A DNA stretch of 64,000 nt from an uncultured Chlamydiae bacterium (GTDB taxonomy: Bacteria; Chlamydiota; Chlamydiia; Chlamydiales; SM23-39). This document shows positions 1,268 through 53,143 of this stretch, piece after piece. Position 1 is the first letter of the stretch. Each line of letters opens with the position of its first letter. A model generated the notes under the pieces. That model was not told where the DNA came from. It did not search any database and was given only the letters and a program-made list of their open reading frames with translations. Both the position numbers and the translations under genes were made by a program. The stretch is from contig CAVSSM010000002.1 in NCBI GenBank assembly GCA_963730605.1, forward strand, positions 192,001-256,000. The letters run 5' to 3'.

Positions 1268-1333
1268 GCACCTATCCTTGATGAAAACTATACTGCGACC
1301 GTTCAAAAAGAGTGAAAAATGCCACTGCGAAAT

Positions 1334-1367
1334 CATAAAAAAGGTCCTTGAATGGACCTTTTTTATG
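1334..1367. terminator. bidirectional intrinsic terminator-like hairpin inside element F
   Basis: CATAAAAAAGGTCC-ttgaat-GGACCTTTTTTATG. Confidence 0.65.
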
Positions 1368-1436
1368 CGAAGCAGCGCCCTGCATTTGAGTCAGGCGAAG
1401 CCGATGTCGAAGCAGCTAAACTTGAAAAGGTTAGCG

Positions 1437-1469
1437 CCGGGGTCCCCGAAGATGTATCATCTTTGGGGT
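1437..1469 (+). repeat. 32-bp hairpin module copy
   Basis: GGGGT-CCCCGAAGATG-TAT-CATCTTTGGGG-T. Confidence 0.8.
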
Positions 1470-1578
1470 AGGGCGCCGGCAGATGCACGCTTTTTGAGCG
1501 GGAGCAGTATATTAGTGGGATAGGTTCAAGCAACTTTCTACTAGCCTCCATAGCCCTGTTCCATTAGACTTTACGGAT

Positions 1579-4527
1579 ATGTTACAAGAAGCCTTAGGCA
1601 CCGTCGGCCAAACCTACCGCGACTTTTTCCTTACAAAGTATTTGCCTCTTAGCGAGTTGCAGAGTACATTGGTGGAGCTTACGCACGAACCTTCAGGCGC
1701 GCGGGTCATCCATATCGCAAATAATGACCCCGACAATCTTTTTTGCCTATCGCTTAAGACTCTCCCGGACAGCTCGAATGGAGTCGCCCACATCCTTGAA
1801 CATACTGTCCTCTGCGGATCGAGAAAATACCCGGTGAAAGACCCGTTTTTCGCGATGACCCGCAGAAGTTTGAATACGTTCATGAACGCCCTTACGGGGC
1901 AGGACTTCACCTGCTATCCGGCAAGTTCGCAAGTTGAGAAAGACTTCTACAATCTCCTGGAGGTCTATCTCGACGCTGTCTTCCATCCCGAACTAAAGGA
2001 ATTAAGCTTTCTGCAAGAAGGGCATCGGCTGGAATTTGCCGAACCGAAAAATCCGAAGAGCCCCCTCCAATTCCAAGGGGTGGTCTATAATGAGATGAAG
2101 GGTGGCATGTCTTCGAGCGACAGCCGCCTTTGGAGGGCCGTTTTCAAACACCTTTTTTCAGATCTTCCCTATGCTCACAATACCGGTGGCGACCCAAAAG
2201 AAATCCCCAGCCTGACCTATGAAGAATTGATCGATTTCCACCGCAATTTCTATCATCCCTCTCGCTGTTTGTTCTTTTTTTATGGTAATATCCCCCTCTC
2301 GAAGCACCTCGACTTCATCGAGAAAAAAGCGTTGTCCGGCGTCTCGAAGCTTGCCGCTTTGCCGCCGATGCCGCGCCAAAAGCGGTTTACCGCTCCGATC
2401 TCCCGAATCGAAAAATACCCGGTCAGCAGCTCGGACTCTTTGGAAAAAAAGGCGATCCTCGCCTATGCCTGGCTCACGGCGCCGGTGACAGATCCTGGCG
2501 AGGTCTTGGCTATATCCCTTCTAGAATGCATCCTCATGGACAATGACGCCTCGCCGCTGAGGCAATCTCTCCTCAAATCGAAATTATGCACGCAAGCCTC
2601 CTCATCCATCGATCTGGAAATGAGCGAAATTCCCTGGCTGATCGTCTGTAAGGGATGCGAACCGGAGAATGCAGGCGCGCTCAAAGAACTCCTTTTTCAC
2701 GAACTTGGCAAGATTGCGGCAAACCCCATCCCTAAAGAGCAAATCGAAGCCGCTTTGCACCAACTCGAATTCGAAAGGACCGAAATCAACACCGATGAAG
2801 GTCCCTTTGGACTTACGCTCTTCATGCGCGCCGCCCTCATCGCCCAGCATGGAAGCGCTCCGGAAAGCGGCCTTTTGATCCATACCCACTTCAAGAGCTT
2901 AAGAGAAAAACTCGAAAACCCAGACACTCTGCCCAACTTGATCCGCTTTTATCTTTTAGACAATCCCCATTTTCTCCAACTCACCCTGGCTGCCGACCCG
3001 AATCTTGAAAAAGAGGAAGCCAAAGACGAGAGGAAAACATTGGACGCCATCCGCGCCCACCTCTCTCCCGAGATGGAAGCGAAGATTGTCGCCCAATCCG
3101 AGGCGCTGGCCCTCTATCAAGAAGCAACCGAAAATCAATCTCTCGAGTGCCTGCCCAAAGTGACGCTGCAAGACGTCTCTCCCCACGCCCGCAACATCCC
3201 CCTCGAGGAAACCGTAGCGGGGCAGATGACGGTTTTTCACCATTCCTGCTTTACCAACCAAATTCTTTACGCCGATCTCCTCTTCGATCTTCCCCATCTC
3301 TCGTTTTCCGACCTTCCTCTCGTTTCTCTTTTCGTCCGCTTTTTAAGCGAAGTGGGATGCGGAGGCATTGGCTATGAAAAGACGCTCGAATTTGCCCAAC
3401 GCTATACCGGAGGCGTCAACGCGTCTCTCTCTCTGCATGTCTCTCAAGCCGACCCTGATCGGTGCAGACCGACCCTATCTCTCAAAGGAAAAGCCCTTGC
3501 CCGGAATGGCTCTAAACTTTTCGAGCTTTTCTCTAAGATCATCTCCAGCCCTGATTTCACCGATGAAAGACGTATCCGGGAACTTTTATCCCAGCACGCC
3601 ACAGCTCTCCAAAATCGACTGACGAAAAATGCCCTGAGCTATGCGATCCAAACGTCTTTGAGCGGCTTTTCTTCAGCCTCTTCTGTGTACGATCAATGGC
3701 AGGGGCTTCCCTACTATGCTGCGGTCATGAGATGGGCGAAAAATCCGGGCGTGTTGGCCGAAGACCTCCTCCGGATGCAAAAATCGATCTTAGGCAAGGG
3801 CGCTCCGCATCTCGTCCTCTCCTGCGACAGCCCCTTTTTCCAAGACCTAAGAGTTGCTAGCTTCTTTGGCCTTAGCGAGAACCTGGGAGGAAAACCTTTT
3901 GAACCCTGGACCGGAAACTACCCTATCCCTGAGATTGTCCCCCAAGCGCGGATTTTGAGCGTGCCGGTCGCCAACACTGCTCTCGGGACGAGAACCGTCT
4001 CCTACCGCGATCCCGCATCCCCTCTACTCCTTCTTTCGACCGAGCTGCTCCAAAACGTCATCCTCCATAAGGAGATCCGGGAAAAAGGGGGCGCATATGG
4101 CTCGGAAGCCTCCTACTCCCCGGCTACAGGAAACTTTTATTTCACTTCTTACCGAGATCCCCATCTGGCCAAAACGATCTTGGCTTTTGAAAAAGCGATG
4201 GAAAAAATCGCCGCCGGGGGTTTTAATGAACGGCACCTCGAAGAAGCGAAGCTAGGGATCCTTCAGCAACTGGACGCCCCTATCGCTCCCGGATCCAGAG
4301 CTATGATGGCTTACGCCTGGAAGCGAGCCGAGCGCACGCAAGAAATGCGGGAAGCCTTCCGCAATCAAATCCTCTCAGCGACCCGGGCTGAAGTTTCCTC
4401 TGCGGTTGCGGAACACCTTTTGCCCCAAAAGAAAATCCTCGTCTCTTTTTTGGGCGAGGCCCTCTATGAAAAAGAAAAGAAAAAAATCAAACAGCCCCTT
4501 ACCGTCCTGCCGATCGAGACGACTTGA
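1579..4527 (+). CDS. M16C insulinase-family zinc metalloprotease (PreP-like)
   Basis: Inverted zinc motif HILEH in GVAHILEHTVLCGS; IREKGGAYG; SYRDP; 982 aa. Confidence 0.92.
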   Translation: MLQEALGTVGQTYRDFFLTKYLPLSELQSTLVELTHEPSGARVIHIANNDPDNLFCLSLKTLPDSSNGVAHILEHTVLCGSRKYPVKDPFFAMTRRSLNTFMNALTGQDFTCYPASSQVEKDFYNLLEVYLDAVFHPELKELSFLQEGHRLEFAEPKNPKSPLQFQGVVYNEMKGGMSSSDSRLWRAVFKHLFSDLPYAHNTGGDPKEIPSLTYEELIDFHRNFYHPSRCLFFFYGNIPLSKHLDFIEKKALSGVSKLAALPPMPRQKRFTAPISRIEKYPVSSSDSLEKKAILAYAWLTAPVTDPGEVLAISLLECILMDNDASPLRQSLLKSKLCTQASSSIDLEMSEIPWLIVCKGCEPENAGALKELLFHELGKIAANPIPKEQIEAALHQLEFERTEINTDEGPFGLTLFMRAALIAQHGSAPESGLLIHTHFKSLREKLENPDTLPNLIRFYLLDNPHFLQLTLAADPNLEKEEAKDERKTLDAIRAHLSPEMEAKIVAQSEALALYQEATENQSLECLPKVTLQDVSPHARNIPLEETVAGQMTVFHHSCFTNQILYADLLFDLPHLSFSDLPLVSLFVRFLSEVGCGGIGYEKTLEFAQRYTGGVNASLSLHVSQADPDRCRPTLSLKGKALARNGSKLFELFSKIISSPDFTDERRIRELLSQHATALQNRLTKNALSYAIQTSLSGFSSASSVYDQWQGLPYYAAVMRWAKNPGVLAEDLLRMQKSILGKGAPHLVLSCDSPFFQDLRVASFFGLSENLGGKPFEPWTGNYPIPEIVPQARILSVPVANTALGTRTVSYRDPASPLLLLSTELLQNVILHKEIREKGGAYGSEASYSPATGNFYFTSYRDPHLAKTILAFEKAMEKIAAGGFNERHLEEAKLGILQQLDAPIAPGSRAMMAYAWKRAERTQEMREAFRNQILSATRAEVSSAVAEHLLPQKKILVSFLGEALYEKEKKKIKQPLTVLPIETT

Positions 4528-4577
4528 ACTTATAAGCAAAATTCGCTATATTCTTAGTGAGAAAAGGAGCGGGTTTT

Positions 4578-6038: not shown

Positions 6039-6061
6039 CCCTTGTTCATTGGAAATTGCTG

Positions 6062-6716: not shown

Positions 6717-7859
6717 TCACTTTAAAGGATCAACAAATGCGCGAAATTCAGGATCGCTCTTCAATGAGGCAAATTCCTCTTCGTTGAGGAGGCTCGCGAG
6801 GTCGAAGCTTCCGTGCTGCCAGGCAGTCTGGAGCCAGCCGCCCGCAGGCTTAGCCTGGTGGAGAAAAGCGAAGGCGCGCGCGTTCTGCAGCGCGACATCC
6901 ATTGAGGAAGAAATCTGATAGCACTCGCTCGAGAGCTCGGCGACAAGAGGATAATCTTTTTGGGTCGCCGCGAGTTTGTGGAGTAGGCAAAGGGCGTCTT
7001 CGTCCAGCTGCTTTTTAAAGGGGATGAGGATTTCGTAGGCCTCTTTTTGCCTCCCCTCTTGATTTTCGAGAAATGCGAGATATTGGGAGGCTATTCTCGA
7101 TAAAATCCCCCCTTCTCCCTTTTGGCGCACTTCTTCGAAAAGCTGCTTCGCCTCATCCTTTTTACCATTTTTCAGCATCGTCTCGGCGCGGCTGACCAGC
7201 TCCTTGTTCTCCTCTTCCCGGTCGCCAGCGCTCGCAAACCGGCTCTTTCTCCAGGAGTCGAAACTTTGAAAGGCGAAGAGGAAAAAAATCGCGCCAATAA
7301 GATAGGCCTGGATGATGAAAAAATAAAATGAGATGAGGGCGGCGATGACGGCGCCGGCAAGAAGCGCCGCCTTGAATCCTTTGAGCCCCCACAAAGCTTC
7401 TAAAACGATCCGGAGAAGCTGTCCCCCATCCAGCGGGAGGACGGGAAGCAGATTGACGAATGTCCAAAAAAGGTTGGCGATCTGCGCCGACTTCAAGATC
7501 TTGAAGATGGTAGGCGAACTAGATAAGTCTATTTGAAGAAGGAGAGTAGCGATTAGAAAAAGGAAAAAACCGAACAAGGGGCCATTGAAAGCGATCAGAA
7601 ACTGTTGCCAAAAGCGGAGCTTCGGCCCTTCGTAGGAGGTAAGCCCGCCAAGAGCGACGAGTTGGATTTGGGTTTTTTGCTTGAAGGCAGCCGCGGTCAA
7701 GGCATGTCCGAACTCATGGATCAAAACGGAAAAGAAAATAATCCCGACCCAAATGAGCATGCCGATAAAAGTTTGGGTATAAAACCATCCGATGAACGCG
7801 GCAAAAATCCAAAAAAGCGGATGGATCGCAATCGGGATGCGCCCTGGAATAACGATCAT
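6717..7859 (-). CDS. site-2 protease (M50) with helical TPR-like C-terminus
   Basis: HEFGH and [11 protein letters not shown] motifs; several TM segments; ATG overlaps the sucD stop (ATGA). Confidence 0.85.
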
Positions 7860-8732
7860 TTTTTCATTGCCTTCTTGACAGCCTCTCCCATTTCCGCGGG
7901 GCTCTCGGTAATGACGGCACCCGCGTTCCGGAACGCTTCGTATTTTTGCGCGGCCGTTCCGAGGCCTCCCGAAATGATCGCCCCCGCATGACCCATTCTT
8001 TTGCCGGGAGGGGCGGTAGCTCCGGCGATGAAGACCGCGATCGGCTTTTTGCAGTGCTTGGCCGCCCATTCGGCCGCCTGCTCTTCGGCATCCCCGCCAA
8101 TTTCTCCTATGAGGAGAATCGGCTTGTGTCTCCGGATCGCGCTCGAACTCTTTCATACAATCGATGAAATTCGTGCCGTTCAACGGATCTCCGCCGATCC
8201 CGACGCAGGTCGATTGCCCGAGCCCGAGCTTTGTCGTTTGCCAAACAGCCTCGTAGGTCAAAGTCCCTGACCTTGAAACGATTCCGATCGATCCTTTTTT
8301 ATGGATATAGCCGGGCATGATCCCGATCTTGCATTCGCCGGGTGTAATGATCCCGGGGCAATTGGGGCCGATCAGCCGGGAGATCTTCGAGGCGTTCATC
8401 ACCCGCTTCACTTCGAGCATGTCGCGGATCGGGATCCCTTCCGTGATGCAGACGATAAGAGGTATCCCGGCCTCTTCCGCCTCCAGGATCGCGTCGGCGC
8501 AGTAAGGAGCGGGCACGAAAATCAGCGTCGCATCGGGATGCACCGCCTCTTTTGCCTCCGCGACCGTATCGAATACGGGAACGCCGAAGATCTCTCTGCC
8601 CCCTTTTCCCGGAGTCACTCCGCCGACAAGCCGGGTCCCATATTCCTTGCACTGCTCCGCATGGAACATGCCCGCTTGGCCCGTAATCCCTTGCACGATC
8701 AGTTTCGTCTTTTTATTTACCAGTATGGCCAT
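7856..8732 (-). pseudogene. sucD: succinyl-CoA ligase alpha subunit with a single +1 frameshift near 8120 (pseudogene or sequence error)
   Basis: [22 protein letters not shown]; removing one base restores ILLIGEIGG...GKRMGHAGA to TGA 7856; span 877 bp = 3n+1. Confidence 0.85.
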
Positions 8733-8743
8733 CTGTTCACCGT

Positions 8744-8769
8744 GAACCCTCATTTTGTAGACACCCTCT
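8744..8769 (-). repeat. family C arm at the sucC/sucD junction
   Basis: Reverse complement AGAGGGTGTCTACAAAATGAGGGTTC matches 40495-40520 at 25/26. Confidence 0.8.
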
Positions 8770-11078: not shown

Positions 11079-11798
11079 ATGCGCAGTCTCTACACTTGGC
11101 CTACTTTTCCCCGCGATTTAGAACCACCTGCCGCCAGGTCTCTGTCTTTCCTCTTTGTCCTCCAGGAATTTCTAGCTGCCTGTAGGCTGGTCGAGAGGCT
11201 CGAGAATGCGGCTCCGGAAGGAGACCTCGGCGGCATCTCTTCCCGCTTGGATCTCTTCCTCCTCTCCTCTTTGGATAACCCATTTGCCCAAAAGGGAGGC
11301 GCGCTCGACAAGCTTTGCTTTTATTGCGAAATTTTGCTACAAGGCTCGAAAGTCAGCGATGAGACTATCCTCGTGCTTCTGGAAGAGATGCAAAACGCCG
11401 TCATGAAAATCAGATCGAAACTGATCTTTTGGAAAAAGAAGGCGCCTCTTCGCGAGGAAATCGAAGCGGAATTTATGGAGCTCTACAAGCAGCTCCACCG
11501 GAACCTCGCCTCATTTTTTTCCTCCCTCCATGCTTTCCTCAAAGAATCCCGAACCGACGAGAACGTCCTCCTCTATCTCGTCGAACACCGCAAAGAGTTC
11601 AATCTTTACCTTGGCGAAAATGCGATCGAAAATCTCTTGAGCGTCTTTTTCCCCTCGGGGCCTCATGAACTTCGCGCAATGATCTGCGAAGGCTACACGC
11701 GCCGCGGCTTCGGCGCTTTTTACGCAGAGCAAGAACCGATGCTAGATGCCCTTGAATGGGAGACTCACGGATGTCCTTCCCCATCTCCGACGCGCTAA
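11079..11798 (+). CDS. hypothetical protein
   Basis: 239-aa ORF overlapping the next gene in an apparent operon with priA. Confidence 0.7.
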   Translation: MRSLYTWPTFPRDLEPPAARSLSFLFVLQEFLAACRLVERLENAAPEGDLGGISSRLDLFLLSSLDNPFAQKGGALDKLCFYCEILLQGSKVSDETILVLLEEMQNAVMKIRSKLIFWKKKAPLREEIEAEFMELYKQLHRNLASFFSSLHAFLKESRTDENVLLYLVEHRKEFNLYLGENAIENLLSVFFPSGPHELRAMICEGYTRRGFGAFYAEQEPMLDALEWETHGCPSPSPTR

Positions 11799-12610
11799 CT
11801 TTCATTCGGAGCGCGCTTCTTCTCCTTAAAGAAGAGCCGTTCATCCTCGCCTCGCCCGAAGATGCCGCCTATTTCCGCTTGCGGCATACGCATATGAAGG
11901 CGGCTCTTCACCCCAAAAACGATGCGTTTCTGGGGACCCCGGCGTTGCCTCTAGCGCCCATTGTGAACTCGCCGCCTCCGTCCAAGACGAGCGCGCAAAT
12001 CAAGACCGAGAAGCCGGTTCAAGAAGTTGCAAAGCCTAAAATGGAAGAGCCGCTGCCGGGGTCCCCAGAAACGCATCGTTTTTGGGGTGAAGAGCCGCTG
12101 CAAAAGCAAAGGGAGGGTGGCAAGCGCGAGGGATCCCATTTTTCTGCCATTTTAGAAAAAATCGCCCCAGAGCTTCCGCTCCTCGATGCGATTCCCGATG
12201 ACAAGACCGCAAAACAAATCGCAAACCGCTGGAAGACGAAAAACCAATCGGCGCCCATCTCGATCCTCTCGAGCGGAGAATTGCCCCAGCATAAGGCTCT
12301 TCTTGAGGAGATCGCAGTAGCCCTCGATGTGTACTTTGGAGAAGCGCGCCTGATCGTAGGAGATCCGATCGAAAAAGAAAAAGAGTGGAAAACGTTTCTC
12401 TCCGTCGGTAGCCTCAAGCTGATCGTCATTTGCGATTCGACTCTTTGGCAACTCCACAACCTACGGCAGTTCTACAAAGAGACCCCAGCCACCGGAGTCC
12501 GGACGCTGGGAGACGTGCCGGTCTTCCTTCTCCCAGACCTTTCCCTCTATCTGAAAGATCCTCTCCTCAAGCGCTCTCTTTGGAAAGCTCTATGCTCCAG
12601 ACTTTCGTAG
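11771..12610 (+). CDS. hypothetical protein preceding priA (probably the conserved chlamydial priA neighbour), with two in-frame hairpin modules
   Basis: ORF overlaps the priA start; C-terminus LSLYLKDPLLKRSLWKAL; Pro/Lys-rich linker holds the repeats. Confidence 0.75.
   Translation: MSFPISDALTFIRSALLLLKEEPFILASPEDAAYFRLRHTHMKAALHPKNDAFLGTPALPLAPIVNSPPPSKTSAQIKTEKPVQEVAKPKMEEPLPGSPETHRFWGEEPLQKQREGGKREGSHFSAILEKIAPELPLLDAIPDDKTAKQIANRWKTKNQSAPISILSSGELPQHKALLEEIAVALDVYFGEARLIVGDPIEKEKEWKTFLSVGSLKLIVICDSTLWQLHNLRQFYKETPATGVRTLGDVPVFLLPDLSLYLKDPLLKRSLWKALCSRLS
11900..12098. repeat. perfect 44-bp inverted repeat formed by two hairpin-module copies (11900-11943 and 12055-12098)
   Basis: GCCGGGGTCCCCAGAAACGCATCGTTTTTGGGGTGAAGAGCCGC and its reverse complement. 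Confidence 0.9.
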
Positions 12611-14841
12611 AGGTCCTCCTAGATCAAAATCTTGCGAAGCGGCTCGACTACGCGGTGCCAGAAGAGTGGGCATCCGAGATCGAGATCGGGATGCGGGTCG
12701 AGGTCCCCCTTAAAACTAAGGCGTTAAAAGCAACGGTGGTGAGGATTAAACAAGAATCTCTAGTACCAAACGTACGCCCGATCCTCCGCCTCCTCTCAAG
12801 CCAGTCTGAATTGACAGATGCCCAGTGGAAGCTCGCTCATTGGATGTCCCACTACTACGCCGCCCCTTTGCAGCGGGTGTTGAAATGCTTCATCCCCCCA
12901 AATGTCCGAAAAAACGTCAAAGCGAAGACCCAGATCTTCGTCTCCTTGAATGTGGCGAGGGGCAATGCTTTGAAGATTTGCGAGGTCCTCCGAAGAGAAA
13001 ATCCGGAAGAAGCGGCTGTATTGGAAGCGGTCTTACAAAGGAAAAGCTGTTTTGCGGCGGATCTCTCAAGGGAGCTGGGAGTTCCGATGAGCGCTATTGC
13101 CCGTCTCATGAAGAAAAAGATCCTTTCTTCAAAAAAGGCTCACCGAGAGGATGACATCCTCTTGGAAGAGGAATTTTTCAAAACGAAATCGAAATCACTC
13201 AATGTGGAACAAAAATCATGCTTTGATGCAGTCTCTGATTCTTTGTCAGGAAACCGTTTTGCCGCGCATCTCATCCACGGCGTGACCGGAAGCGGGAAAA
13301 CCGAAATCTACCTCCAGGCGATCACTCACGCGCTCGGGCAAAATAAAAGCGCCATCCTCTTAGTCCCCGAAATTTCTCTCACCTCTCAGACGCTTGCCCA
13401 TTTCCGCGCCCGTTTTTCTGAAAAAATCGCCATCCTCCACCACAAAAGAAGCCTAGGAGAACGGAGCTTAGCTTGGGAAAAGCTGAAATCCGGGGAGATC
13501 CGGATCGTCGTCGGCGCGAGATCGGCCATCTTCGCTCCCGCTCAAAATTTAGGCCTCATCATCGTAGATGAAGAACACGACAGCTCCTATAAACAGGGCG
13601 AAGAGGCCCCTTTCTACCATGCCCGCAACGTCGCCGTCATGCGCGCCCATTTGGAAAATGCCGTCGTTCTCCTCGGAAGCGCTACTCCATCTGTCGAATC
13701 GCGCTACAACGCCGAAATTGGCAAATACCGCCTCCATAAGATCGCCGCTCGCGCCACCTCCGCCCCTCTTCCCAAAGTCACTATCGTCGACATGAAAAAA
13801 GAACTCGAAAAAAGCGGCGGGTTCACCCATTTTTCCGAAGAGCTTTTGCAAGGGATCAAAGAGCGGTGCGATGCGGGAGAGCAAAGCCTCCTTTTTCTCA
13901 ACCGCCGCGGCTATCACCGGCTTCAAATCTGCAGCTCCTGCCGATCCGCCGTCAAATGCCCCCATTGCGACCTGGGGCTGACTTTCCATCGAGGCGAGAC
14001 CTCCGGGATCCCCAAAAAAGCATCGTTTTTGGGGGAGGGCCGCTTGCGGTGCCACCTTTGCGATTACCAGAGAGCGGCCCCGCGGGAGTGTCCCGCATGC
14101 GGGTCCTCGAACAGGCTCCAATTCAAAGGATTTGGGACGGAGCATGTGGAATGGTCGCTCCATGCCCTATTTCCCGATATCCGCACCCTCCGGATGGACC
14201 GGGACACAACGCAAAAAAAAGAGAGCCATGAAGAGATCTTCAAACAATTCCGCGCCCATAAAGCCGACGTGCTCATCGGCACTCAAATGATCGCGAAAGG
14301 CTTCCACTTCCCCTCGGTCACTCTCGTCGGCGTTCTTAATGCCGACGCCCCGCTCAGCATCCCCGATTTCCGCTCCGCCGAATCAGTCTTCCAACTCCTC
14401 ATCCAGGTGTCCGGGCGCTCCGGACGCTTGAACTTGCCGGGAGCTGTGATCCTCCAAACCTTCCTCCCCGACCACCCCGTCTTGAAGCTCGCCGCCGCCC
14501 AGGACTACGACGCCTTCTACAAAGCGGAAATCGAAGAGCGGCGCCTTTTCGGCTTTCCCCCCTTCGCCCACCTCGTAAAATGCCTTTTTTCCTCTCCCGA
14601 TCCCAAAGCCGCTGAGATGGCCGCAACCGAAGCTCATGCCGCCCTTGCCCAATCGCTTCCCCCGTTTGCCCAAGTCTTCCCTCCCGGCCCCTCCGGCCAT
14701 CCGAAAATCAAAGACCAATACAGGTTTCAGTTCCTCATCAAATCTCCCAAAATAGATCCATTAATCCCCATCTTGCAATCTATGCCAAAACTGAACGCTC
14801 AAATAAAAATTGATATAGATCCATTGTCAACATTTTTTTAA
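12592..14841 (+). CDS. priA: primosomal protein N' (replication restart helicase)
   Basis: GVTGSGKTEIY, IVDEEHD, SATPS, four CxxC pairs, GTQMIAKG, QVSGRSGR. Confidence 0.95.
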   Translation: MLQTFVEVLLDQNLAKRLDYAVPEEWASEIEIGMRVEVPLKTKALKATVVRIKQESLVPNVRPILRLLSSQSELTDAQWKLAHWMSHYYAAPLQRVLKCFIPPNVRKNVKAKTQIFVSLNVARGNALKICEVLRRENPEEAAVLEAVLQRKSCFAADLSRELGVPMSAIARLMKKKILSSKKAHREDDILLEEEFFKTKSKSLNVEQKSCFDAVSDSLSGNRFAAHLIHGVTGSGKTEIYLQAITHALGQNKSAILLVPEISLTSQTLAHFRARFSEKIAILHHKRSLGERSLAWEKLKSGEIRIVVGARSAIFAPAQNLGLIIVDEEHDSSYKQGEEAPFYHARNVAVMRAHLENAVVLLGSATPSVESRYNAEIGKYRLHKIAARATSAPLPKVTIVDMKKELEKSGGFTHFSEELLQGIKERCDAGEQSLLFLNRRGYHRLQICSSCRSAVKCPHCDLGLTFHRGETSGIPKKASFLGEGRLRCHLCDYQRAAPRECPACGSSNRLQFKGFGTEHVEWSLHALFPDIRTLRMDRDTTQKKESHEEIFKQFRAHKADVLIGTQMIAKGFHFPSVTLVGVLNADAPLSIPDFRSAESVFQLLIQVSGRSGRLNLPGAVILQTFLPDHPVLKLAAAQDYDAFYKAEIEERRLFGFPPFAHLVKCLFSSPDPKAAEMAATEAHAALAQSLPPFAQVFPPGPSGHPKIKDQYRFQFLIKSPKIDPLIPILQSMPKLNAQIKIDIDPLSTFF
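14003..14035 (+). repeat. hairpin module copy in frame within priA
   Basis: CCGGGAT-CCCCAAAAAAG-CAT-CGTTTTTGGGG; encodes GIPKKASFLG. Confidence 0.75.
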
Positions 14842-14864
14842 TAATAAAATTTAAAACATAACAA

Positions 14865-15024
14865 CTCGACTTTGTACAATTTTTGGCGAGCAGATCCAGA
14901 GGAAGCGCTCTGCAATTTTTTTCTTTTTTTGCGAAATTCATAGCCGAAGGCACTATTTATGAGCAAAAAAAAAAGGGCCAGCGATTCTCTCGGAGATGCC
15001 GTCACAAAATTGTACAAAGTCGAG
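14865..15024. mobile_element. MITE family A (160 bp)
   Basis: TIR CTCGACTTTGTACAATTTT; 5-bp TSD AACAA; near-identical copy at 37661-37825. Confidence 0.9.
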
Positions 15025-15089
15025 AACAACAGAATACAGGAATGCCGTGAACGTTTTCCAATCTGTTCGTTAACTTGCACCATTCAGAT

Positions 15090-15146
15090 CGGAAAACGGA
15101 AACGGAAACGGAAACGGAAACGGAAACGGAAACGGAAACGGAAACG
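15090..15146. repeat. (CGGAAA)n microsatellite
   Basis: 8 perfect units at 15097-15144 plus one imperfect unit. Confidence 0.95.
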
Positions 15147-15206
15147 TTCATGGCATTCCTCTTGTGGGTAACGATCAGCTTCTTGGCCCATTTGGAAATC
15201 TCGATA

Positions 15207-15405
15207 TATACCGCTCGTGATTCAAAAATCGGTTCTGGCGACGGCCCACCCCAAAGACGATGCGTCTTCGTAGACCCCGGACCCGGCGCCGGCAAGGCCT
15301 GGCTCAAATTCAGGTCTGCTTCCCTTAGAAAAAGCTCGAACCCCCGAGCTTTTTCAAGTGTCCGCAGCCTTGCCATATTCCGATTTTTGAATCCCTCTCG
15401 GTATA
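15207..15405. mobile_element. MITE-like element G with TATAC ends, carrying the hairpin module at 15248-15280 (minus)
   Basis: TIRs TATACCG-N5-GATTCAAAAATCGG at 15207-15232 and 15380-15405; internal terminator-like hairpin 15328-15355. Confidence 0.75.
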
Positions 15406-28349: not shown

Positions 28350-28424
28350 GATTACATCGTTTCTAACGCAGCTTCAGAGAGTGTCTACAAAGCAGGGTGG
28401 CCCTCCCCCTCCTGCCAAAACTAT

Positions 28425-28593
28425 TAACCTGAGTTTTGGGTTCATTTGCCTGAGCTTCAATTTCTTTCGGCATCTTTTTGACTTTTCGCCTCGGCAAGAT
28501 GCTTGTCCCGATATTGCTCTCGGCTCCAAAGCGCAAAAATATGCTCGAAATATCCTTGAATCTCATAGACAAATGAACCCAAAACTCAGGTTA
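28425..28593. mobile_element. MITE family B (169 bp)
   Basis: Perfect 24-bp TIR TAACCTGAGTTTTGGGTTCATTTG; second copy at 37516-37854. Confidence 0.9.
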
Positions 28594-28735
28594 TTATTTT
28601 GAAACATGCATAGTTTTTATTTTGTTTAGTAAAAAAAATTTCACTTTACTTTCATTAAATTGCCAAAAAAACAGAACATAGGCTAAAATACATAAATGTT
28701 TTCTAAAATAATCTTTAACAAATAGGAGCATAAAG

Positions 28736-37507: not shown

Positions 37508-37515
37508 CATGCTAT

Positions 37516-37854
37516 TAACCTGAGTTTTGGGTTCATTTGCCTGAGCTTCAATTTCTTTCGGCATCTTTTTGACTTTTCGCCTCGGCAAGATGCTCGTCCC
37601 GATATTGCTCTCGGCTCCAAAGCGCAAAAATATGCTCGAAATATCCTTGAATCTCATAGACTCGACTTTGTACAATTTTTGGCGAGCAGATCCAGAGGAA
37701 GCGCTCTGCAATTTTTTTCTTTTTTTGCGAAATTCATAGCCGAAGGCACTATTTATGAGCAAAAAAAGGAAAAAAGGGCCAGCGATTCTCTCGGAGATGC
37801 CGTCACAAAATTGTACAAAGTCGAGATAGACAAATGAACCCAAAACTCAGGTTA
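37516..37854. mobile_element. MITE family B copy interrupted by a family A copy
   Basis: 339 bp = 169 + 165 + 5-bp duplication. Confidence 0.9.
37661..37825. mobile_element. MITE family A (nested copy)
   Basis: TIR CTCGACTTTGTACAATTTT; TSD ATAGA. Confidence 0.9.
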
Positions 37855-37933
37855 TTATTCATTCTTCTGAAAAAAAACTTGAATTTGCTATCGAATTTTC
37901 TTACTCTGCGGATACCCACCATAGGTATCCACA

Positions 37934-39241: not shown

Positions 39242-40465
39242 ATGACATATAATCCCGTTATAGGAATTGGAACCGGTGCACCAGGAATGGGAGCCGCTGC
39301 CCCCCAAGATTTTTTTTCACCATTGCCCGAGTTGCCAATGGAGCTCATCCAGTCATTCTTAGGTCCAAAAAGCAACGATGCCCTCTCGCGGACAAATACA
39401 AGACTACGCGCGGTTTCATGCCCTTTTAGAGCCGCCGTTCTTCGCTTTGAATACAAAATTGCAGAGAACAAACCCATTACCCTACAAGAGCTAATAGAAC
39501 TAAAAAATCTCAATCCGGATTTTTCAAGTAGAATACCATTCAAACTTGATTTATCAAACAGCAATATTTCTGATGTCGGGCTGCAAGAGCTTATTGTATG
39601 CTTTCCTAATATTATTGAAATTAATGCACAACACTGTCAGGGTTTAACCGATGCCGGGCTGCAGCACCTGGCACATTTGAAAAATCTCACAAGCCTCGAC
39701 TTGACAGAATGCACCCAGGTCACCGACAACGGACTGCAGTTCCTGGCAAGTTTGATAAATCTCACAAGCCTCAGCCTGGAGGGATGCTCCCGGATCACCG
39801 ACGTCGGACTGCGGTGCCTGGCAAGTTTGAAAAATCTCACCACCCTCAACCTGGCATGGTGCCGCCGGATCCCCGACATCGGGCTGCAGTGCCTGGCAAA
39901 TTTGCCAAATCTCACTAACCTCAGCCTAGCACAGTGCACCCAAGTCACCGACATCGTGCTGCAGAGCCTGGCAGGTTTGATACATCTTACAAGCCTCGAC
40001 CTAGAAGGGTGCCACCAGATCACTGACGGGGGGCTGCGGCACTTGGCAGGTTTGATAAATCTCATAAGCCTCAACCTGACATGGTGCCCCAAGATCACCG
40101 ATACCGGGCTGCAGTACTCGGCAAGTTTGAAAAATCTCACAAACCTCAGTCTGAAGGGGTGCAACCGGATCACCGACAACGGACTGCAGTTCCTGGCAAG
40201 TTTGATAAATCTCACAAGCCTCAGCCTGGAGGGATGCTACCAGATCACCGACGGGGGGCTGCGGTACCTGGCGGCAGGTTTGGCAAAGCTCACACGTCTC
40301 AGCCTGAAGGGGTGCTTCCAGGTCACCAACATCGGACTGCAGCACCTGGCAGGTTTGGCCAAGCTCACAAGCCTTGACCTGTCAGAATGCCAACAGATTA
40401 CTGACGCCGGGCTGCAGTGCCTGGCAGGTTGTCGTATTATCCGATTTTTCGGTGTGTTCAGATAA
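39242..40465 (+). CDS. F-box-like / cysteine-containing LRR protein, effector-like
   Basis: LPELPMELIQSFL...LSRTN; about 11 repeats of 25 aa, LTSLxLxxCxxITDxGLxxLA. Confidence 0.85.
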   Translation: MTYNPVIGIGTGAPGMGAAAPQDFFSPLPELPMELIQSFLGPKSNDALSRTNTRLRAVSCPFRAAVLRFEYKIAENKPITLQELIELKNLNPDFSSRIPFKLDLSNSNISDVGLQELIVCFPNIIEINAQHCQGLTDAGLQHLAHLKNLTSLDLTECTQVTDNGLQFLASLINLTSLSLEGCSRITDVGLRCLASLKNLTTLNLAWCRRIPDIGLQCLANLPNLTNLSLAQCTQVTDIVLQSLAGLIHLTSLDLEGCHQITDGGLRHLAGLINLISLNLTWCPKITDTGLQYSASLKNLTNLSLKGCNRITDNGLQFLASLINLTSLSLEGCYQITDGGLRYLAAGLAKLTRLSLKGCFQVTNIGLQHLAGLAKLTSLDLSECQQITDAGLQCLAGCRIIRFFGVFR

Positions 40466-40494: not shown

Positions 40495-40557
40495 AGAGGG
40501 TGTCTACAAAGTGAGGGTTCGTCGAGTTTTTGGAACCTCACTTTGTAGACACCCTCT
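40495..40557. repeat. complete 63-bp palindromic element, family C
   Basis: AGAGGGTGTCTACAAAGTGAGG(G)TTC...GAACCTCACTTTGTAGACACCCTCT between convergent genes. Confidence 0.85.
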
Positions 40558-42734: not shown

Positions 42735-43403
42735 ATGCGAATCAAATCGGTTTTCCTTTTTGCCCTATTCTTCTTATTGTCGGTTTATGGGGAGGTTGTT
42801 GTGAAGGAATTGAGCGGCAAGCCGAGGATCTACCTGTTGCCGAATTTCCTGACGGATGCAGAATGCGATCACTTGATTGAACTTTCCAGAAGGTTCCTGA
42901 CCCAGTCGACCGTGGTCGACGAGGAGAGTCCCGGCGTTGGGAAATTGGACTCGAGGCGATCGAGCAAGGGATATTTTTTGACGGCGGAAGATAGAGACCG
43001 GAAGGTGAGAAAGATCGAGCAGCGGATCGCTGATGTGACGGAGCTGCCGGTGGAAAATGGAGAAGCGCTCCACGTCCTCCATTATCCGAAAGGGGCCGAA
43101 TACCAGCCACATTTTGACTGGTTTAACCCGGACACCCCAGGCGGGGCCGCTGCCATGAACAACCGGGGCGGGCAACGGGCAGCGAGCGTGATCATGTATC
43201 TCAATACACCGCTCGCGGGGGGAGAGACGGTCTTTCCATCGGCGATGGCCTCGGTCACGCCGAAAAAAGGGGACGCAGTCCTTTTCTATAATATCTTACC
43301 GAGCGGGGATGTCGACCCTTTGACCCTTCACGGCGGAGCTCCTGTCCTCGAAGGGGAAAAGTGGATCGCGACCAAGTGGATCCGCATCGGCGTGTTCCGT
43401 TAG
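42735..43403 (+). CDS. 2OG-Fe(II) prolyl 4-hydroxylase-like protein with signal peptide
   Basis: PRIYLLPNFLT.ECDHLI, YQPHFD, GGETVFP, LHGGAPV, KWIATKW. Confidence 0.88.
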   Translation: MRIKSVFLFALFFLLSVYGEVVVKELSGKPRIYLLPNFLTDAECDHLIELSRRFLTQSTVVDEESPGVGKLDSRRSSKGYFLTAEDRDRKVRKIEQRIADVTELPVENGEALHVLHYPKGAEYQPHFDWFNPDTPGGAAAMNNRGGQRAASVIMYLNTPLAGGETVFPSAMASVTPKKGDAVLFYNILPSGDVDPLTLHGGAPVLEGEKWIATKWIRIGVFR

Positions 43404-43405
43404 AT

Positions 43406-44046
43406 AGAACTGACGCATTAAAAAAATCAAAGAAGAATAGACGGTCGGGTTGCTTCCGTGCGCAGATCGCCGCCTGCTACGCGGCGGCCTTGTTCCGATT
43501 GTAGTATTTATTAAAATTTTAATAAACATACGCTCTATAATCAAAAAATCAGAGCCTTTATTTCATCATAAAATAAACTGAATGTTCTTATTCCACAGCA
43601 TTTCGTAATCGATATTTAAAAAACGCTGCTGCGTAGCAGGCGGCGATCTGCGCACGGAAGGGGCCCGCGAAGCGGGAACACGTGTGCAGCCGATGGCGGG
43701 TTCGGACAAAGAGCAATCCGCGCCGCAAAAGCGAGGAGGCGCACTCTGTGCGACGCACGAGCAAGGCGCGCCCCTAGGGGTCCCCGACGATGCATCATCG
43801 TTGGGGAATGGGGGTAGGGAGCGCTTCTGCCGCCGCGAGCAAGGGGTCCCAAAAAACGCATCGTTTTTGGGGTTCGCGTGGCAGGCGGCTATGCTATACC
43901 CGCGCGATCGGTGCTCGAAGTCCCAATCCCGCCACCTGGGCGTGCGGGGGCGGAGCGGAAAGGGGCCCCAAATCGTTTCGTTTGGGGAAAGTCCGCGAAG
44001 CAACTCGACCGTCTCTGGTTCTTTACCATTTTAATGCGTCAGATCT
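43406..44046. mobile_element. ~640-bp non-autonomous composite element E
   Basis: TIR AGAWCTGACGCATTAAAA, imperfect to ~50 bp; flanking direct repeat GTTCCGTTAGAT(AGAAC); internal 30-bp IR; three hairpin modules. Confidence 0.8.
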
Positions 44047-44117
44047 GTTCCGTTAGATAGAACATCTTCTTGGGAATCGGCGAGATCTGATATGATAGCT
44101 CGCTCAAAGGAGCTTCC

Positions 44118-47097: not shown

Positions 47098-47105
47098 ACC
47101 CCCCG

Positions 47106-48122: not shown

Positions 48123-48136
48123 AAATGGAGTTTAAT

Positions 48137-48838: not shown

Positions 48839-49698
48839 GAGCTGAAAAAGCGGACCGTTTTTTCCCAGGCGTCGGTTTTTGCCCGCTCATTATCGCGCGG
48901 ATTGCCGCCGAAGGCAAACCAAATTTTCGCGATCGGGTGCAACTCGGCGACGCCCTCCGTTGACGAGATGCCGTGGCCTGCCCTTGGATAGCTCAAATGA
49001 ACGCAGGAGATCGATGAACCCTTGGCTTGCAGCCTCTCTTGAATCAGCTCTGCGAAGAGAGTCGATGGCCACATTTGGTCATCTTCGGCCGAGATGAGGA
49101 GCAGCGGGCAATCGATTTTTTCCACAGGGATCTGCGATGCGGCGAAAGCGGCTTTGTCTTTCATCCCTTCGAGAAAAAAAGGAGTCAAGGCTAAAGCCGA
49201 CTCGGGAGTTTGGCCGAGGAGAGCACCGCTCGGAACCCCCGGAAAAGGAGCGCTAGGTCCAAGCGGCCGGCCCCGGTAGACCCAAGCCGGAGCGGGGCTT
49301 TGGATCGATCCGTAGATCGCGCTCGTCGGAACGGTCGCAGCGATCGCGGAGAACTTGGCAGGAAAAGTCGATCCAAGGAGAAGGGAAAGCTCTGCGCCGC
49401 GGGATACTCCCCATAAAGCGATCCGCCTCGGATCGATAGAGGGATGACGCATCGCCCAGTCGATCGCCTTGTCGAAATATTCGAGAGGGATTTCTTGCAG
49501 TGATGGAGGAAGTCCAGGGGTTCCGAAATAAGCGAGGCTGAGCGCCGCAAAGCCAGAGGAAGAGAGCTTTTCGGCTCTCGACTCATTGATCCCTCCCCGA
49601 AACCCTCCCAAAGTGATGATGAATGGATGGGGACCTTGTTTTTCGGGGAGATACAACGCGCCGACAAGGCCGAAATCTTGTACAGGTATCCGGTGCAT
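48826..49698 (-). CDS. acyl-CoA thioesterase / BAAT-family hydrolase
   Basis: EIPLEYF, GVSRGAE, DDQMWPS, YPRAGH. Confidence 0.85.
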   Translation of the reverse strand: MHRIPVQDFGLVGALYLPEKQGPHPFIITLGGFRGGINESRAEKLSSSGFAALSLAYFGTPGLPPSLQEIPLEYFDKAIDWAMRHPSIDPRRIALWGVSRGAELSLLLGSTFPAKFSAIAATVPTSAIYGSIQSPAPAWVYRGRPLGPSAPFPGVPSGALLGQTPESALALTPFFLEGMKDKAAFAASQIPVEKIDCPLLLISAEDDQMWPSTLFAELIQERLQAKGSSISCVHLSYPRAGHGISSTEGVAELHPIAKIWFAFGGNPRDNERAKTDAWEKTVRFFSSWMF

Positions 49699-49763
49699 TT
49701 ATAAGATTATCGAAAAAATTACGACACTCGTCAAGAATCAGTCTTTGGTTTATGGGAAGGGGT

Positions 49764-50657
49764 ATGGCCAGTCGAGAATACGAAACTTTTTACGGGGATG
49801 CCTTTTCCAAAAGGACAACCTCCCTCACTCCTTTGGAAGAAACGAGGGAAAACTTTGCAGCGTACTTGTTGGAATTCCCACCTGAGCCCGAGGTGCGCTT
49901 CGAGCCTTTTTCCATCGGCGAGCTTCCTGGAGCTTGGGCTTTTGCCCCCGAGGTGAACCGCCGCAGGATTCTTCTATTTTTTATGGCAGGTGGTTTTACC
50001 GCGGGATCGATCGAGTCGCATAAAAACCTAATCGGAAGGCTCTCCGCCGTAGCTGGCGCCGCCGTCTGCGCTATCCAGTATAGGCTGGCTCCCGAACATC
50101 CCTACCCCGCAGCTCTCGACGACGCCTTGACCGCATACCGGTGGCTTCTGCATCATCCGTATGCCCGCTCGAAAATCCTCTTCAGCGGCATTTCGGCAGG
50201 CGGCGGGCTGTCCCTATCGCTCCTCCTCCGACTCAAACTCGAAAAGATCGCGATGCCGGCGGGCGCCCTTGTCTTTTGCCCTTGGTTCGATCTCAAATTA
50301 AGCGGCGAAAGTTATAGGTCAAATAAAGAAAGAGACCTTCTTTCAACAGAAAGACTTTCTTGGTGCGCTGAAAAATACGCTGCTGGCAAAGATCTTGCAG
50401 ACCCGCTTCTTTCTCCCATTTATGGAGATCTTAGCGGACTGCCTCCCCTCTTCATCCAGGCGGGAACTAGAGATCTTCTTTACAGCGACGCTACAGAGCT
50501 CGTAAAAAAGGCTGAAAAGCAGGGAGTCTCGGTCACTCTCGACGTATGGCCGGATATGATCCACGCCTGGCAGATTTGCGCTCCACGATTTCCAGAGGCG
50601 CAAGAGGCGCTCGAGCGGGCCGGAGAGTTCGTGGACAAACTGTTCAAACTTCTTTAA
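49764..50657 (+). CDS. HSL-family esterase/lipase
   Basis: YRLAPEHPYPAALDD, GISAGG, MIHAW. Confidence 0.85.
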   Translation: MASREYETFYGDAFSKRTTSLTPLEETRENFAAYLLEFPPEPEVRFEPFSIGELPGAWAFAPEVNRRRILLFFMAGGFTAGSIESHKNLIGRLSAVAGAAVCAIQYRLAPEHPYPAALDDALTAYRWLLHHPYARSKILFSGISAGGGLSLSLLLRLKLEKIAMPAGALVFCPWFDLKLSGESYRSNKERDLLSTERLSWCAEKYAAGKDLADPLLSPIYGDLSGLPPLFIQAGTRDLLYSDATELVKKAEKQGVSVTLDVWPDMIHAWQICAPRFPEAQEALERAGEFVDKLFKLL

Positions 50658-51808
50658 AGGTAAATCCGCGGAAGCCGCTCGTTGAGCGATGCGAGCATTT
50701 CGTGGGGGATTGAATCGGCGTAGCGCGAGAGCTCAGAGAGAGTGATCTCATCTCCCCCCTGTTTGCCGATGAGCACCACAACATCTCCCACATAAGCTTC
50801 CCCTTTGCCGATATCGACCATGAATTGGTCCATGCAGATCGTTCCCGCGATGGGAAAACGCTCGCCCCGAATGAGCGCCGCGGCCTTTCTAAAAAGGCAC
50901 CTTCGGTACCCATCCCCATACCCCACGGGCACTGTCGCGATCCGCGTCTCTTCTTGCGTCCGATACGCATGGCCATAGCCGATTCCCGCCCCTTTTTGAA
51001 CGACTTTGAAATAGGAGACTTTTGCTTTCAGGCTCAAGGCTGGGGCGATCTCGCCTGCCGGATCAGTGTTGCCGTCGGGATAATAGCCATAGGCAAGAAG
51101 GCCGGGCCTTACCATATCGAAATAGGAATCCGGATAGTAGGCCACTCCTCCCGAGTTGGCCAGATGGCAAAGAGGGACGCGCCCTTTGACCTCGGCTGCA
51201 ATGGAACGAAACACCTCGATTTGATAGAAGGCAAAAGGATCGTTCGGGACGTCGGATGTGGCCAAATGGGAATAGATCCCTAGGATATCGAAACATCCCA
51301 GCCGTTCGACAAAAGAGAGAAGCGAGAGGGCATTTTCCGCCCGCACCCCGGTGCGCCGCATCCCTGTGTCGATTTCGATATGGACCTTGCATTTTCGGCA
51401 ATCCTTTCCCCTTTTTTTCGCTACCAGTTCCGCCTTGTACTTGGAGCTGATCGAAAACTCGAGATCGAATTCGATCAAATCCCCGATCTGGTCCTCATGA
51501 ATGGCGCCGAAAATCACGATCGGAATGGAAATTCCGGCTAGCCTGAGCTCTACGGCTTCTTTCAAACAAGAGACCCCGAGCGAATCGACTCCGGACTCCT
51601 CGGCGATTTTTCCCATCCGGCAAAGCCCATGTCCATAGGCGTTGGCCTTCACCGGAAGGCAAAAACGGCTCTTTCCAACGATCTTACGAACGCGCGCGAG
51701 GTTTTTCCTAAATTGCCCCGTATCGATCTCGATCCAGGCCGGATGGGCGCATACAGGCCGTAAATGTGTGACGACCCGGTTGCCCTCGATCATTTTCTGC
51801 AACGTCAT
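50654..51808 (-). CDS. alr: alanine racemase
   Basis: VKANAYGHG, DTGMRR.G, HLANS, VGYGDG, CMDQ. Confidence 0.93.
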   Translation of the reverse strand: MTLQKMIEGNRVVTHLRPVCAHPAWIEIDTGQFRKNLARVRKIVGKSRFCLPVKANAYGHGLCRMGKIAEESGVDSLGVSCLKEAVELRLAGISIPIVIFGAIHEDQIGDLIEFDLEFSISSKYKAELVAKKRGKDCRKCKVHIEIDTGMRRTGVRAENALSLLSFVERLGCFDILGIYSHLATSDVPNDPFAFYQIEVFRSIAAEVKGRVPLCHLANSGGVAYYPDSYFDMVRPGLLAYGYYPDGNTDPAGEIAPALSLKAKVSYFKVVQKGAGIGYGHAYRTQEETRIATVPVGYGDGYRRCLFRKAAALIRGERFPIAGTICMDQFMVDIGKGEAYVGDVVVLIGKQGGDEITLSELSRYADSIPHEMLASLNERLPRIYL

Positions 51809-51947
51809 GATCTCAGCATAGACTATACCTCGCGCAGGAAGGTTTTGTGAATTTTGACTCTGCGAGCTAAAGCATAATCGATTCGCATTTTGAGCATACT
51901 GCTATTTTTGAAAAAATTGAACAGTCTGATATCATGCCCCAATCCAT

Positions 51948-52427
51948 ATGGAAGAGCTAATTGGCATCCTCGAAGAAACCCCATGGTGGGTTTTTGTGGT
52001 CTTCTTCTATTTGGTTGTGATTGGCGTAAAGGCGCTGCAACCAAGTACAGTATCTATCTATAGACTCATTATCCTACCCGTTATCCTAACGGTCTGGGGG
52101 CTCGTAGGCATCAAATGGAGCCTCTCTCCCCTCCTCGCATGGGGTGTTTCTGTTGCCCTGGGAATCGGCCTCGGCTGGCTTTTTGTCCGCAAATGGAAAA
52201 TCCGTTACGACCGGAGGCGCGCCACTCTCCATCTTCCGGGCACCTGGTCAACCCTTGTCTTTGCGCTGACGTTCTTCGGCATCAAATACTTCTTCGGGTT
52301 CTACAACGCGACCCATACTGAGATCCCCTTCGAGTTAATGGTCGCAGAAAGCGCTGCCGCTGGCGTCATCGCGGGAATGTTCCTCGGGCGTCTTGCCTTC
52401 TTCTGGAAAAGGTACGAGGAAGTGTGA
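51948..52427 (+). CDS. hypothetical integral membrane protein
   Basis: TPWWVF start; about five TM segments. Confidence 0.75.
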   Translation: MEELIGILEETPWWVFVVFFYLVVIGVKALQPSTVSIYRLIILPVILTVWGLVGIKWSLSPLLAWGVSVALGIGLGWLFVRKWKIRYDRRRATLHLPGTWSTLVFALTFFGIKYFFGFYNATHTEIPFELMVAESAAAGVIAGMFLGRLAFFWKRYEEV

Positions 52428-52437
52428 AACTAAATCA

Positions 52438-52731
52438 TCAAGTAGAGAATAAATCTTCGTAGAGTCTTTTCGCGAAAAGCTGCACCTTTTGACTCAATAC
52501 GGCTGCATTTTGGTTCTGGTCGAAAAGACGGAGATCCTTTTCTTTGAGCCGCACGCGATTCATGGCATTTGCGGCGATCCATTTATGGATTTTGTCGATC
52601 GTGTCGGCCAAAGCGGATTCCGTGATCAGCAGATCTTGGTCTTCCCATTGCTTTCTTAGCTTTTCTCTCGCGCGCTTCGTCTTGATGCTCTCCGGAGCGA
52701 TGCGGCTCCGCTTCTCCTGTTTGCTTTGCAT
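52438..52731 (-). CDS. hypothetical protein
   Basis: GGAGG RBS before ATG 52731. Confidence 0.55.
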   Translation of the reverse strand: MQSKQEKRSRIAPESIKTKRAREKLRKQWEDQDLLITESALADTIDKIHKWIAANAMNRVRLKEKDLRLFDQNQNAAVLSQKVQLFAKRLYEDLFST

Positions 52732-52853
52732 GCGACCTCCAGTCACCGATCTCATCCTAGTAAAAAATCCTTTAAAGATCCAGTGGAAAGAAGGTTCATT
52801 TAAATCTGGAATTTAATACCCGCACTCTTTAGAATTATCGGCTAACTCTCTCC

Positions 52854-53143
52854 GAGACTGTCCACAAACTCAGGCGGCAACAAGTGGCTGAGCGAGACGC
52901 ACGGGGTCCCCCCCACCGACGCATCGTCGGAAGGGGTGTGAAAGCCAGATCGAAAGAGCGAAGCTCCGGTTCGAGAGAGGAAGACATTCTTGAATACGAA
53001 GGATTCCGAGCGAGAATCGATATGGCTGCGGAAACGCGAGAAGATCCAGTGGACCTTCGCAGCGCAGAGCAGATGAGCGAATGCGAATCGGCCCGGAGGG
53101 AGTCGCAGCCAGCCAATTGTCGCCTGAGTTTGTGGACAGTCTC
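52854..53143. mobile_element. MITE-like element D (290 bp) carrying the hairpin module at 52903-52937
   Basis: Perfect 23-bp TIR GAGACTGTCCACAAACTCAGGCG. Confidence 0.85.

Follow-up and report, generated by a model that had tools for sequence, protein, structure and literature searches.

The 64,000-nt stretch analysed here, referred to as the window, comes from an uncultured Chlamydiae bacterium (assembly GCA_963730605.1, contig CAVSSM010000002.1) and corresponds to C2:192001-256000 of the source genome G000 (2.2 Mb on 12 contigs, completeness rating 83%). It contains a short hairpin module, M1, both inside and outside of MITEs (transposable elements of miniature size with inverted repeats). 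We are highly confident that M1 entered three unrelated shells, spacers and protein genes independently, as a secondary insertion. Our preferred interpretation, held with somewhat more belief than doubt, is that M1 is a separate, independently inserted micro-element that spreads by host-driven copying-in from existing copies. On the host-driven copying step itself, be it template switch or conversion, we are evenly divided. Separate entry into the three shells, named F/G, D and E after the elements listed below, follows from the fact that their module-free forms have no mutual similarity better than an E-value of 0.57.

Module and shells

A profile seeded with six copies from the window converged on a 31-nt module that opens with a GGGG(T/C) leader and continues with CCCC and a first arm of 7 nt, followed by a CAT loop, the second, complementary arm, GGGG and a single additional base. 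The source genome harbors 170-171 copies at a score of at least 16-20 bits and the reversed genome none, even at 12 bits; thus, M1 is not a product of chance. The hairpin is 25 nt long in 85 of 102 structure-based matches and, behind its leader, makes up a moving unit of about 36-38 nt. Among 95 distinct copies, double changes were found at several stem pairs, G-U pairs are tolerated and 94% of the stem cells are paired compared to 86% after arm shuffling, a control that ignores relatedness. Pairing beyond the hairpin exceeds permutation at the first two flanking pairs only (0.59 versus 0.40 and 0.57 versus 0.44). Compared with permuted flanks, flank-flank pairing is strong for shell-borne copies (0/500) and weak to borderline for solo copies (15/500). 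As the signal is confined to the first two flanking pairs, a long outer stem was rejected as a fixed part of M1. Membership in a known structured RNA family was likewise dismissed since Rfam gave no match in the window at the gathering score and none in six loci at E≤0.5.

About 92 of the 171 copies occupy three sites in F/G shells, 9 lie at two D-type sites and 70 elsewhere, counts that we prefer to the noisy automatic shell classification. Solo sites, defined as clusters with unique flanks, comprise 72 copies in 44 clusters, a few of which are E-type. Judged informally, M1 is mostly single or head-to-tail with few inverted pairs (e.g. 11910/12058 and C1:625329/625405). Tandem arrays reach ten units. 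Head-to-tail arrays of 10 and 9 units are located at C5:65878-66232 and C7:8766-9082, respectively, and the former is in frame, ahead of a SelR domain.

The features of the window are listed below. G003 denotes the closest relative (approx. 90% identical; about 1.0 of its 1.7 Mb was compared), ORF an open reading frame, and M2 and M3 further optional modules.

1289-1511, plus strand: element F, an IS630-type TA-ended MITE and loaded F/G shell, apparently collapsed between two former M1 copies
1324-1375, plus strand: optional hairpin M2 in F, not in empty shells
1439-1469, plus strand: M1 in F; the 5′ half resembles site-a copies, the 3′ half site-b copies
11910-11940, minus strand: solo M1 lying in frame within ORF 11756-12610, derived recently and in inverted orientation from the one at 12058
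12058-12088, plus strand: solo M1, in frame in ORF 11756-12610; common to G003, with a different stem variant there
14005-14035, plus strand: solo M1 inside priA, a 13-residue (39-nt) in-frame insertion
15207-15405, minus strand: element G, F/G shell family
15248-15278, minus strand: M1 in G
15314-15368, minus strand: optional hairpin M2 (variant) in G
43406-44046, plus strand: element E, an unrelated shell with a 12-nt target duplication (43394-43405, 44047-44058)
43777-43807, plus strand: first M1 in E, a 43-nt indel relative to the module-free homolog L039
43843-43873, plus strand: second M1 in E, an indel of about 42 nt relative to L039
43960-43991, plus strand: shorter hairpin of M1-like build in E, a fixed part of E-type ends
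52854-53143, plus strand: element D, an unrelated shell whose interior is also found with other outer ends
52899-52940, plus strand: 42-nt block with a degenerate M1 (52903-52937) in D, cleanly missing from the copy at C1:443243-443418
53024-53099, plus strand: optional module M3 in D, also in G-type and E-type shells; a 72-nt indel relative to the C1 copy

A preliminary description of this DNA had reported F, G, E and D with these coordinates and with inverted ends, which we confirm, and had considered them four different shells that all carry the module. By sequence comparison the shells are three and unrelated, F and G being loaded versions of one module-free element of 165-175 bp. The module is present in F, G and, in two copies, E; D contains only a degenerate form. 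The hairpins of F and G had been called terminator-like. They are indeed flanked by A/T, but a terminator scan gave no call in either region. The statement that three further repeat families, A to C, lack the module agrees with the absence of any M1 profile match in the other repeats of the window (14864-15025, 28421-28596, 37512-37857, 40495-40557), which presumably represent these families. Shells with and without the module, a comparison proposed at the time, exist for F/G, D and E, and shared ancestry accounts for the relation of F to G only. The second comparison, between shell ends and insertion sequence (IS) ends, linked F/G to a resident IS630 and revealed no autonomous partner for the ends of D or E. 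Three M1 copies outside any MITE, at 11910, 12058 and 14005, had escaped notice.

F and G align in reverse orientation with 75% identity over 76 nt and 79% over 43 nt. Among 32 paired TATAC-ended elements, 10 are devoid of M1, 14 contain one copy, 7 two and 1 three; 71 further ends are unpaired. Their alignment reveals three M1 sites (a, b and c) and other optional hairpins. Module-free shells of 165-175 bp were read in G002, G017, G018 and G059. In the 19 of 20 loci covered by the scan, no M1 match was obtained, and G017 and G059 gave no match to the M1 pattern at all. Element F can be explained as such a shell plus M2 that collapsed between M1 copies at sites a and b, while G looks collapsed between sites c and b. 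M2 occupies site a in some copies where M1 sits in others. In two F/G shells from G017 (L223 and L226), one end is replaced by a hairpin repeat that we take to be IS200/IS605-like.

Both F/G ends carry TA (TATA...TATA). The G end at 15207 is identical to the left end of the resident IS630 at 21/21 nt and the other G end matches at 17/21, whereas the ends of F match more weakly (13/21 and 15/21). The IS630 is present in 14 copies, and its 347-aa protein passes NF033545; many other multi-copy IS elements reside in the genome as well. Entire F/G elements are present in G003 and missing at the orthologous position in G000 (e.g. L014 and L024). With matching ends, terminal TA, insertion polymorphism and no transposase coding capacity, the F/G shell is an IS630-linked MITE.

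The degenerate M1 of D has three extra C residues and an extra base in the 3′ arm, and scores 7.3 bits ungapped; six D-like copies elsewhere score 24-29 bits. E has short module-free relatives in G000, and its G003 homolog lacks both M1 copies. The short hairpin at 43960-43991 may be related to M1 or have given rise to it. F, G, E and D all fold strongly as RNA (z −7 to −14).

Further variation affects the shells themselves, which look as if assembled from a kit of hairpins. At least two further pairs of outer ends are found around the D interior, which amounts to end swapping (C2:257562, C3:53871, C11:23660, C1:690612). M3, about 72-76 nt long, is common to D-, G- and E-type shells and can replace or accompany M1 (C1:12817, C2:152383, C4:69240, L096). 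Whole G-type elements reside within long ORFs in one reading frame (C1:12931, C1:448918, C4:3289, C7:30706, C9:103348, C9:107418). At C10:9300-10860, near-perfect inverted repeat flanks of about 700 bases and two D-type elements form either a real palindrome or an assembly artefact. Upstream of G, at 15046-15153, GTGAACG...CGTTCA delimits a short-unit repeat; repeats of this kind harbor M1 many times over in another assembly (L124, L137, L145 and others).

Empty and filled sites

Comparison of the 44 solo sites with the compared part of G003, in most cases the only outgroup, showed 20 without counterpart, 16 empty, 7 filled and 1 unclear, the empty ones including two paralogous E-type comparisons and two from one duplicated locus. 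The reverse case, M1 in G003 at sites empty in G000, was found as well (L015, L023, L029). The priA insertion is missing in all four congeners that span the site and is covered by identical DNA contigs in three of four runs, while in G003 a contig break divides priA at this position. At low cover, DNA contigs over M1 sites other than those of D and E revealed no empty allele.

At 12 of the 13 coding sites with an empty ortholog (priA and 11 sites compared with G003), the insertion is in frame. The exception is a 26-nt insert at C1:664484 beside an A-run near the start of a gene that, by its motif, presumably encodes triosephosphate isomerase. Among the 22 host ORFs, 16 have Pfam families, including PriA, MurC-Ddl, an MurG-type glycosyltransferase, DnaX, acetate kinase, NAD kinase, inositol monophosphatase, TamB and SelR. 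Each copy adds 8-16 residues, and predictions give 8-44 M1-derived extra residues for core proteins, e.g. PriA, MurC-Ddl and NAD kinase. The module is found on either strand of host genes. As the common variants (130 of 171 copies) have no stop triplet on either strand, M1 survives in any reading frame. Splicing or ribosomal bypass of M1 was rejected: apart from the exception at C1:664484, indels in coding regions are multiples of three, whereas those in spacers and shells are not (35, 38, 43, 46 nt).

The net gain per copy is 24-48 nt. Two units recur, AA-module-AAA of 36 nt, which forms a clean blunt insert at C11:108949, and NCC-module-GGGG of about 38 nt. Some targets already read GGGG followed by A and gained 26-27 nt. 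Empty/filled pairs have no constant target duplication and display blunt inserts, small target losses or a GGGG overlap instead; often, 0-6 target bases were replaced. Nor do the empty sites share a single target word: some shell sites read GCG^AT or C^GA, and solo sites vary. Within the F/G shell, L132 and L167 carry M1 at site c on the opposite strand, and site b received differently flanked units in L130 and G000, which argues for repeated entry of M1. Having neither terminal inverted repeats of its own nor a constant target duplication, M1 itself is no MITE or DDE-type element.

Within the class, 5 of the 46 genomes from the same family but none of 254 others gave a match to the M1 pattern; combined with a further search, ten positive relatives from eight genera are known. 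The congeners G002, G004 and G005 (93-96% complete) are M1-negative. Where a taxon is given, assemblies with the motif are titled Chlamydiae, Chlamydiia, Chlamydiales or Parachlamydiales, apart from one titled Verrucomicrobia that carries the same F/G shell. At least 80 loci in 14 assemblies contain M1 in F/G shells as well as in other palindromes, short-unit repeats and hairpins after tRNA genes; one further host is, by our own reading of its ends, presumably an IS605-like mini element. L267 and L289 contain M1 as an insert of 39 nt within a palindromic repeat, and the empty form of this repeat is found in the same locus. When ten stem positions were freed, 63 of 64 metagenome matches paired at 4-5 of the 5 free positions. 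Eighteen metagenome matches, many of them from one conserved locus, have GC-rich stems and no protein match to G000. The neighbouring genes of two such loci have Pyrinomonadaceae or Acidobacteria as named relatives (72-74% identity), and variants with other stems sit in repeats of probable Acidobacteria. Viral contigs gave no match with two patterns, and plasmids only chance-level matches (E 1-5).

Possible routes of spread

The solo copy at 11910 is missing in G003, is identical to its neighbour at 12058, 117 bases away, and carries the neighbour's flank. Both of its junctions lie in 4-nt matches between target and donor, and junction microhomology to the donor is the pattern expected of a template switch. 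Solo sites are clustered, 15 of 44 having another within 3 kb compared to 4.7 at random (7/5000 draws), and near M1 pairs differ at 3.7 as opposed to 6.8 of 31 bases, although the pairs are not independent. What distinguishes orthologous copies is a swap of the entire stem or a flipped loop. Moreover, five stem variants are common to shell-borne and solo copies, among them a D-type variant located inside the NAD-kinase gene, suggesting that shells can act as donors.

In a host-driven process, replication or repair would copy M1 in from existing copies, and M1 would need no enzyme of its own. New copies might preferentially land or survive at hairpin-forming single strands in MITEs and other palindromes. 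The loaded shell and its passenger would then be multiplied by IS630 and other transposases and carried between genomes, and recombination between repeated modules within a shell could generate the many shell lengths, those of F and G included. Mini-transposons thus probably act as M1 carriers. Both alternatives raised in the preliminary description contain some truth. That MITEs are the dispersal vehicle is borne out in part, as more than half of the copies lie in shells and other genera contain the same loaded shell. That the module targets MITEs is consistent with repeated entry at one shell site in both orientations and with different variants, but M1 is also common in genes and spacers.

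Several observations weigh against host-driven copying. Only a single site showed microhomology to the donor. Sites far apart have the same defined ends, with A at five flanking positions in 14-19 of 21 class-A sites, and in both phyla the leader, the length of the hairpin and the loop are constant although the stem varies. Taken together, these constant features fit recognition by a protein better than passive slippage. At the GGGG^A sites, absence in the relative may instead reflect loss by slippage. Targeting of MITEs is at most a preference, which survival bias could produce as well.

The same features would suit a REP-like substrate of a dedicated single-strand transposase, of the HUH/Y1 type or another, that reads leader and hairpin and pastes them into hairpin loops. 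Besides the recurring ends, the constant hairpin length and the conserved leader and loop next to a freely covarying stem, the lack of target duplications is in line with such an enzyme, and a leader followed by a hairpin recalls the ends of IS200/IS605. Nevertheless, we consider it unlikely. G000 has a single Y1 match, a fragment that adjoins a disrupted TnpB-like frame and lacks M1 in its vicinity, none of ten scanned Y1 loci contains M1 (in G000 within the limits of its completeness), and full-length Y1 proteins occur in 3 of 11 genomes with the module and in 2 of 19 without it. All of these are draft assemblies, which lose mobile genes, so that absence of a gene is weak evidence. The sole GIY-YIG match in G000 belongs to a 608-aa frame like those of nearly all relatives, and the insert sizes scatter widely. 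An RNA route, in which a group II intron reverse transcriptase copies the transcripts of MITEs or genes into DNA and the hairpin is converted into new sites, appears improbable to us. It has been proposed for GC42 of the yeast GC clusters (PMC4478555), and G000 has three group II introns with a reverse transcriptase passing TIGR04416 (C1:286485-288431, C4:1-1953, C8:29770-31722); the tolerated G-U pairs and the flank co-conversion would agree with it. However, the enzyme is found in 3 of 11 module-positive compared to 7 of 19 module-negative genomes, the intron copies do not adjoin modules, and M1 lies on either strand of host genes. In this screen of three gene families in draft genomes, RAYT/Y1, reverse transcriptase and stand-alone GIY-YIG proteins were rejected as the mover of M1 for lack of co-occurrence.

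Two further explanations were considered. Retention by host selection, as a protein-binding or RNA-stability signal, might account for the maintained stem pairing and for copies near gene starts or after tRNA genes. It is very improbable given that M1 is patchy within genera, absent from all 254 genomes of other families searched, missing from most comparable solo sites of a 90%-identical relative and unmatched in Rfam. Hardly any credence remains for shared ancestry with passive carriage, according to which M1 was part of a single ancestral MITE interior. It holds for F versus G, and more than half of the copies reside at the three F/G sites. Yet empty shells are widespread and, across the three types, unrelated, solo in-frame copies lack any shell sequence, and other genomes offer further unrelated hosts. 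For D and E, it is refuted by the D copy without the 42-nt block, the E homolog without modules and the unrelated empty shells.

More tentatively, and with clearly more doubt than conviction, M1 may belong to an uncatalogued cross-phylum family of about 36 nt, characterised by a leader with a G-run, a hairpin of 11 pairs and a CAT loop, and pasted by an undiscovered factor into the loops of structured repeats such as IS630 MITEs, IS605-like minis and REP-like palindromes, and hence be a true parasite of parasites. If so, M1 would also build MITE diversity and add peptide loops to core proteins.

Three other features of the window were noted. At 6717-8753, an ORF, presumably succinyl-CoA-synthetase-alpha-like, leaves its frame and continues into the following gene as a fusion, which may be an assembly frameshift. 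A protein with Pro/Thr/Ser tandem repeats is encoded at 53422-55401, where 276 nt are exactly duplicated, and the region 39242-40465 encodes a protein with leucine-rich repeats that have a period of 75 nt.

Comparison with known small repeats

M1 works like cyanobacterial SDR5, yeast GC clusters and Rickettsia palindromic elements (RPEs), and its kind of element is thus already known. The M1 family, nested as it is in several unrelated repeats in two phyla, makes a useful variant; a word-based literature search, which misses most subscription journals, found no description of the hairpin. For small dispersed repeats (SDRs), CGTC repeats, RPEs and GC clusters, it is an open question how units shorter than 50 nt spread with no evident transposase. 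With dozens of empty/filled pairs at 90-95% identity, young copies whose donors can be traced and variants from two phyla, the M1 family makes template-switch, single-strand-transposase and RNA routes directly testable. In addition, much of the apparent MITE diversity in these chlamydiae comes down to one shell with optional modules.

Elhai et al. reportedly described in 2008 SDRs of 21-27 nt from Nostocaceae that occur inside mini-transposons. M1 fits this kind of repeat in being shorter than 50 nt, dispersed and present or absent at orthologous sites. The following comparisons are by description rather than by sequence. SDR5 of Nostocaceae inserts precisely between bases 3 and 4 of HIP1 (PMC5861425, PMC4390886). 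Like M1, it is a very short mobile repeat without a known mover that is inserted in another repeat. In contrast to SDR5 with its one target word, M1 has no single target word and variable ends, and it resides in Chlamydiae and probable Acidobacteria. The yeast mitochondrial GC clusters, e.g. GC42, are GC-rich palindromes of about 40 nt with constrained stems. They share with M1 the presence/absence turnover, merger, shuffling, horizontal exchange and an unresolved mechanism, but are organellar and flanked by AG or ACT direct repeats, which M1 lacks (PMC4478555). RPEs are, like M1, in-frame palindromes in unrelated housekeeping genes. RPE-1, however, measures about 150 bp, and with 36-38 nt M1 falls well below the 100-150 nt of such elements; M1 also nests in MITEs (PMC10969869, PMC3733652).

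REP sequences and REPINs resemble M1 as 20-40-nt hairpins with an unpaired tag at one end that form clusters and include some intragenic units, and the CGTC repeats likewise have no dedicated transposase (PMC3116915, PMC3733652). Their tag is GTAG or CGTC, whereas that of M1 is GGGG(T/C) with AA/AAAA or CC/GG flanks. They form inverted doublets accompanied by RAYT; M1 appears mostly single or head-to-tail, and no RAYT was found. The shells have parallels of their own in ERIC (PMC3184786) and, for the F/G shell as a TA-ended MITE matched to a resident IS630, in RUP/IS630-Spn1 and BOX of pneumococcus. A variable number of internal modules, including 45-nt tandem arrays, is a further likeness. 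boxB is described as a tandem array between boxA and boxC, whereas M1 occurs in several sites, shells and genes (PMC3049150).

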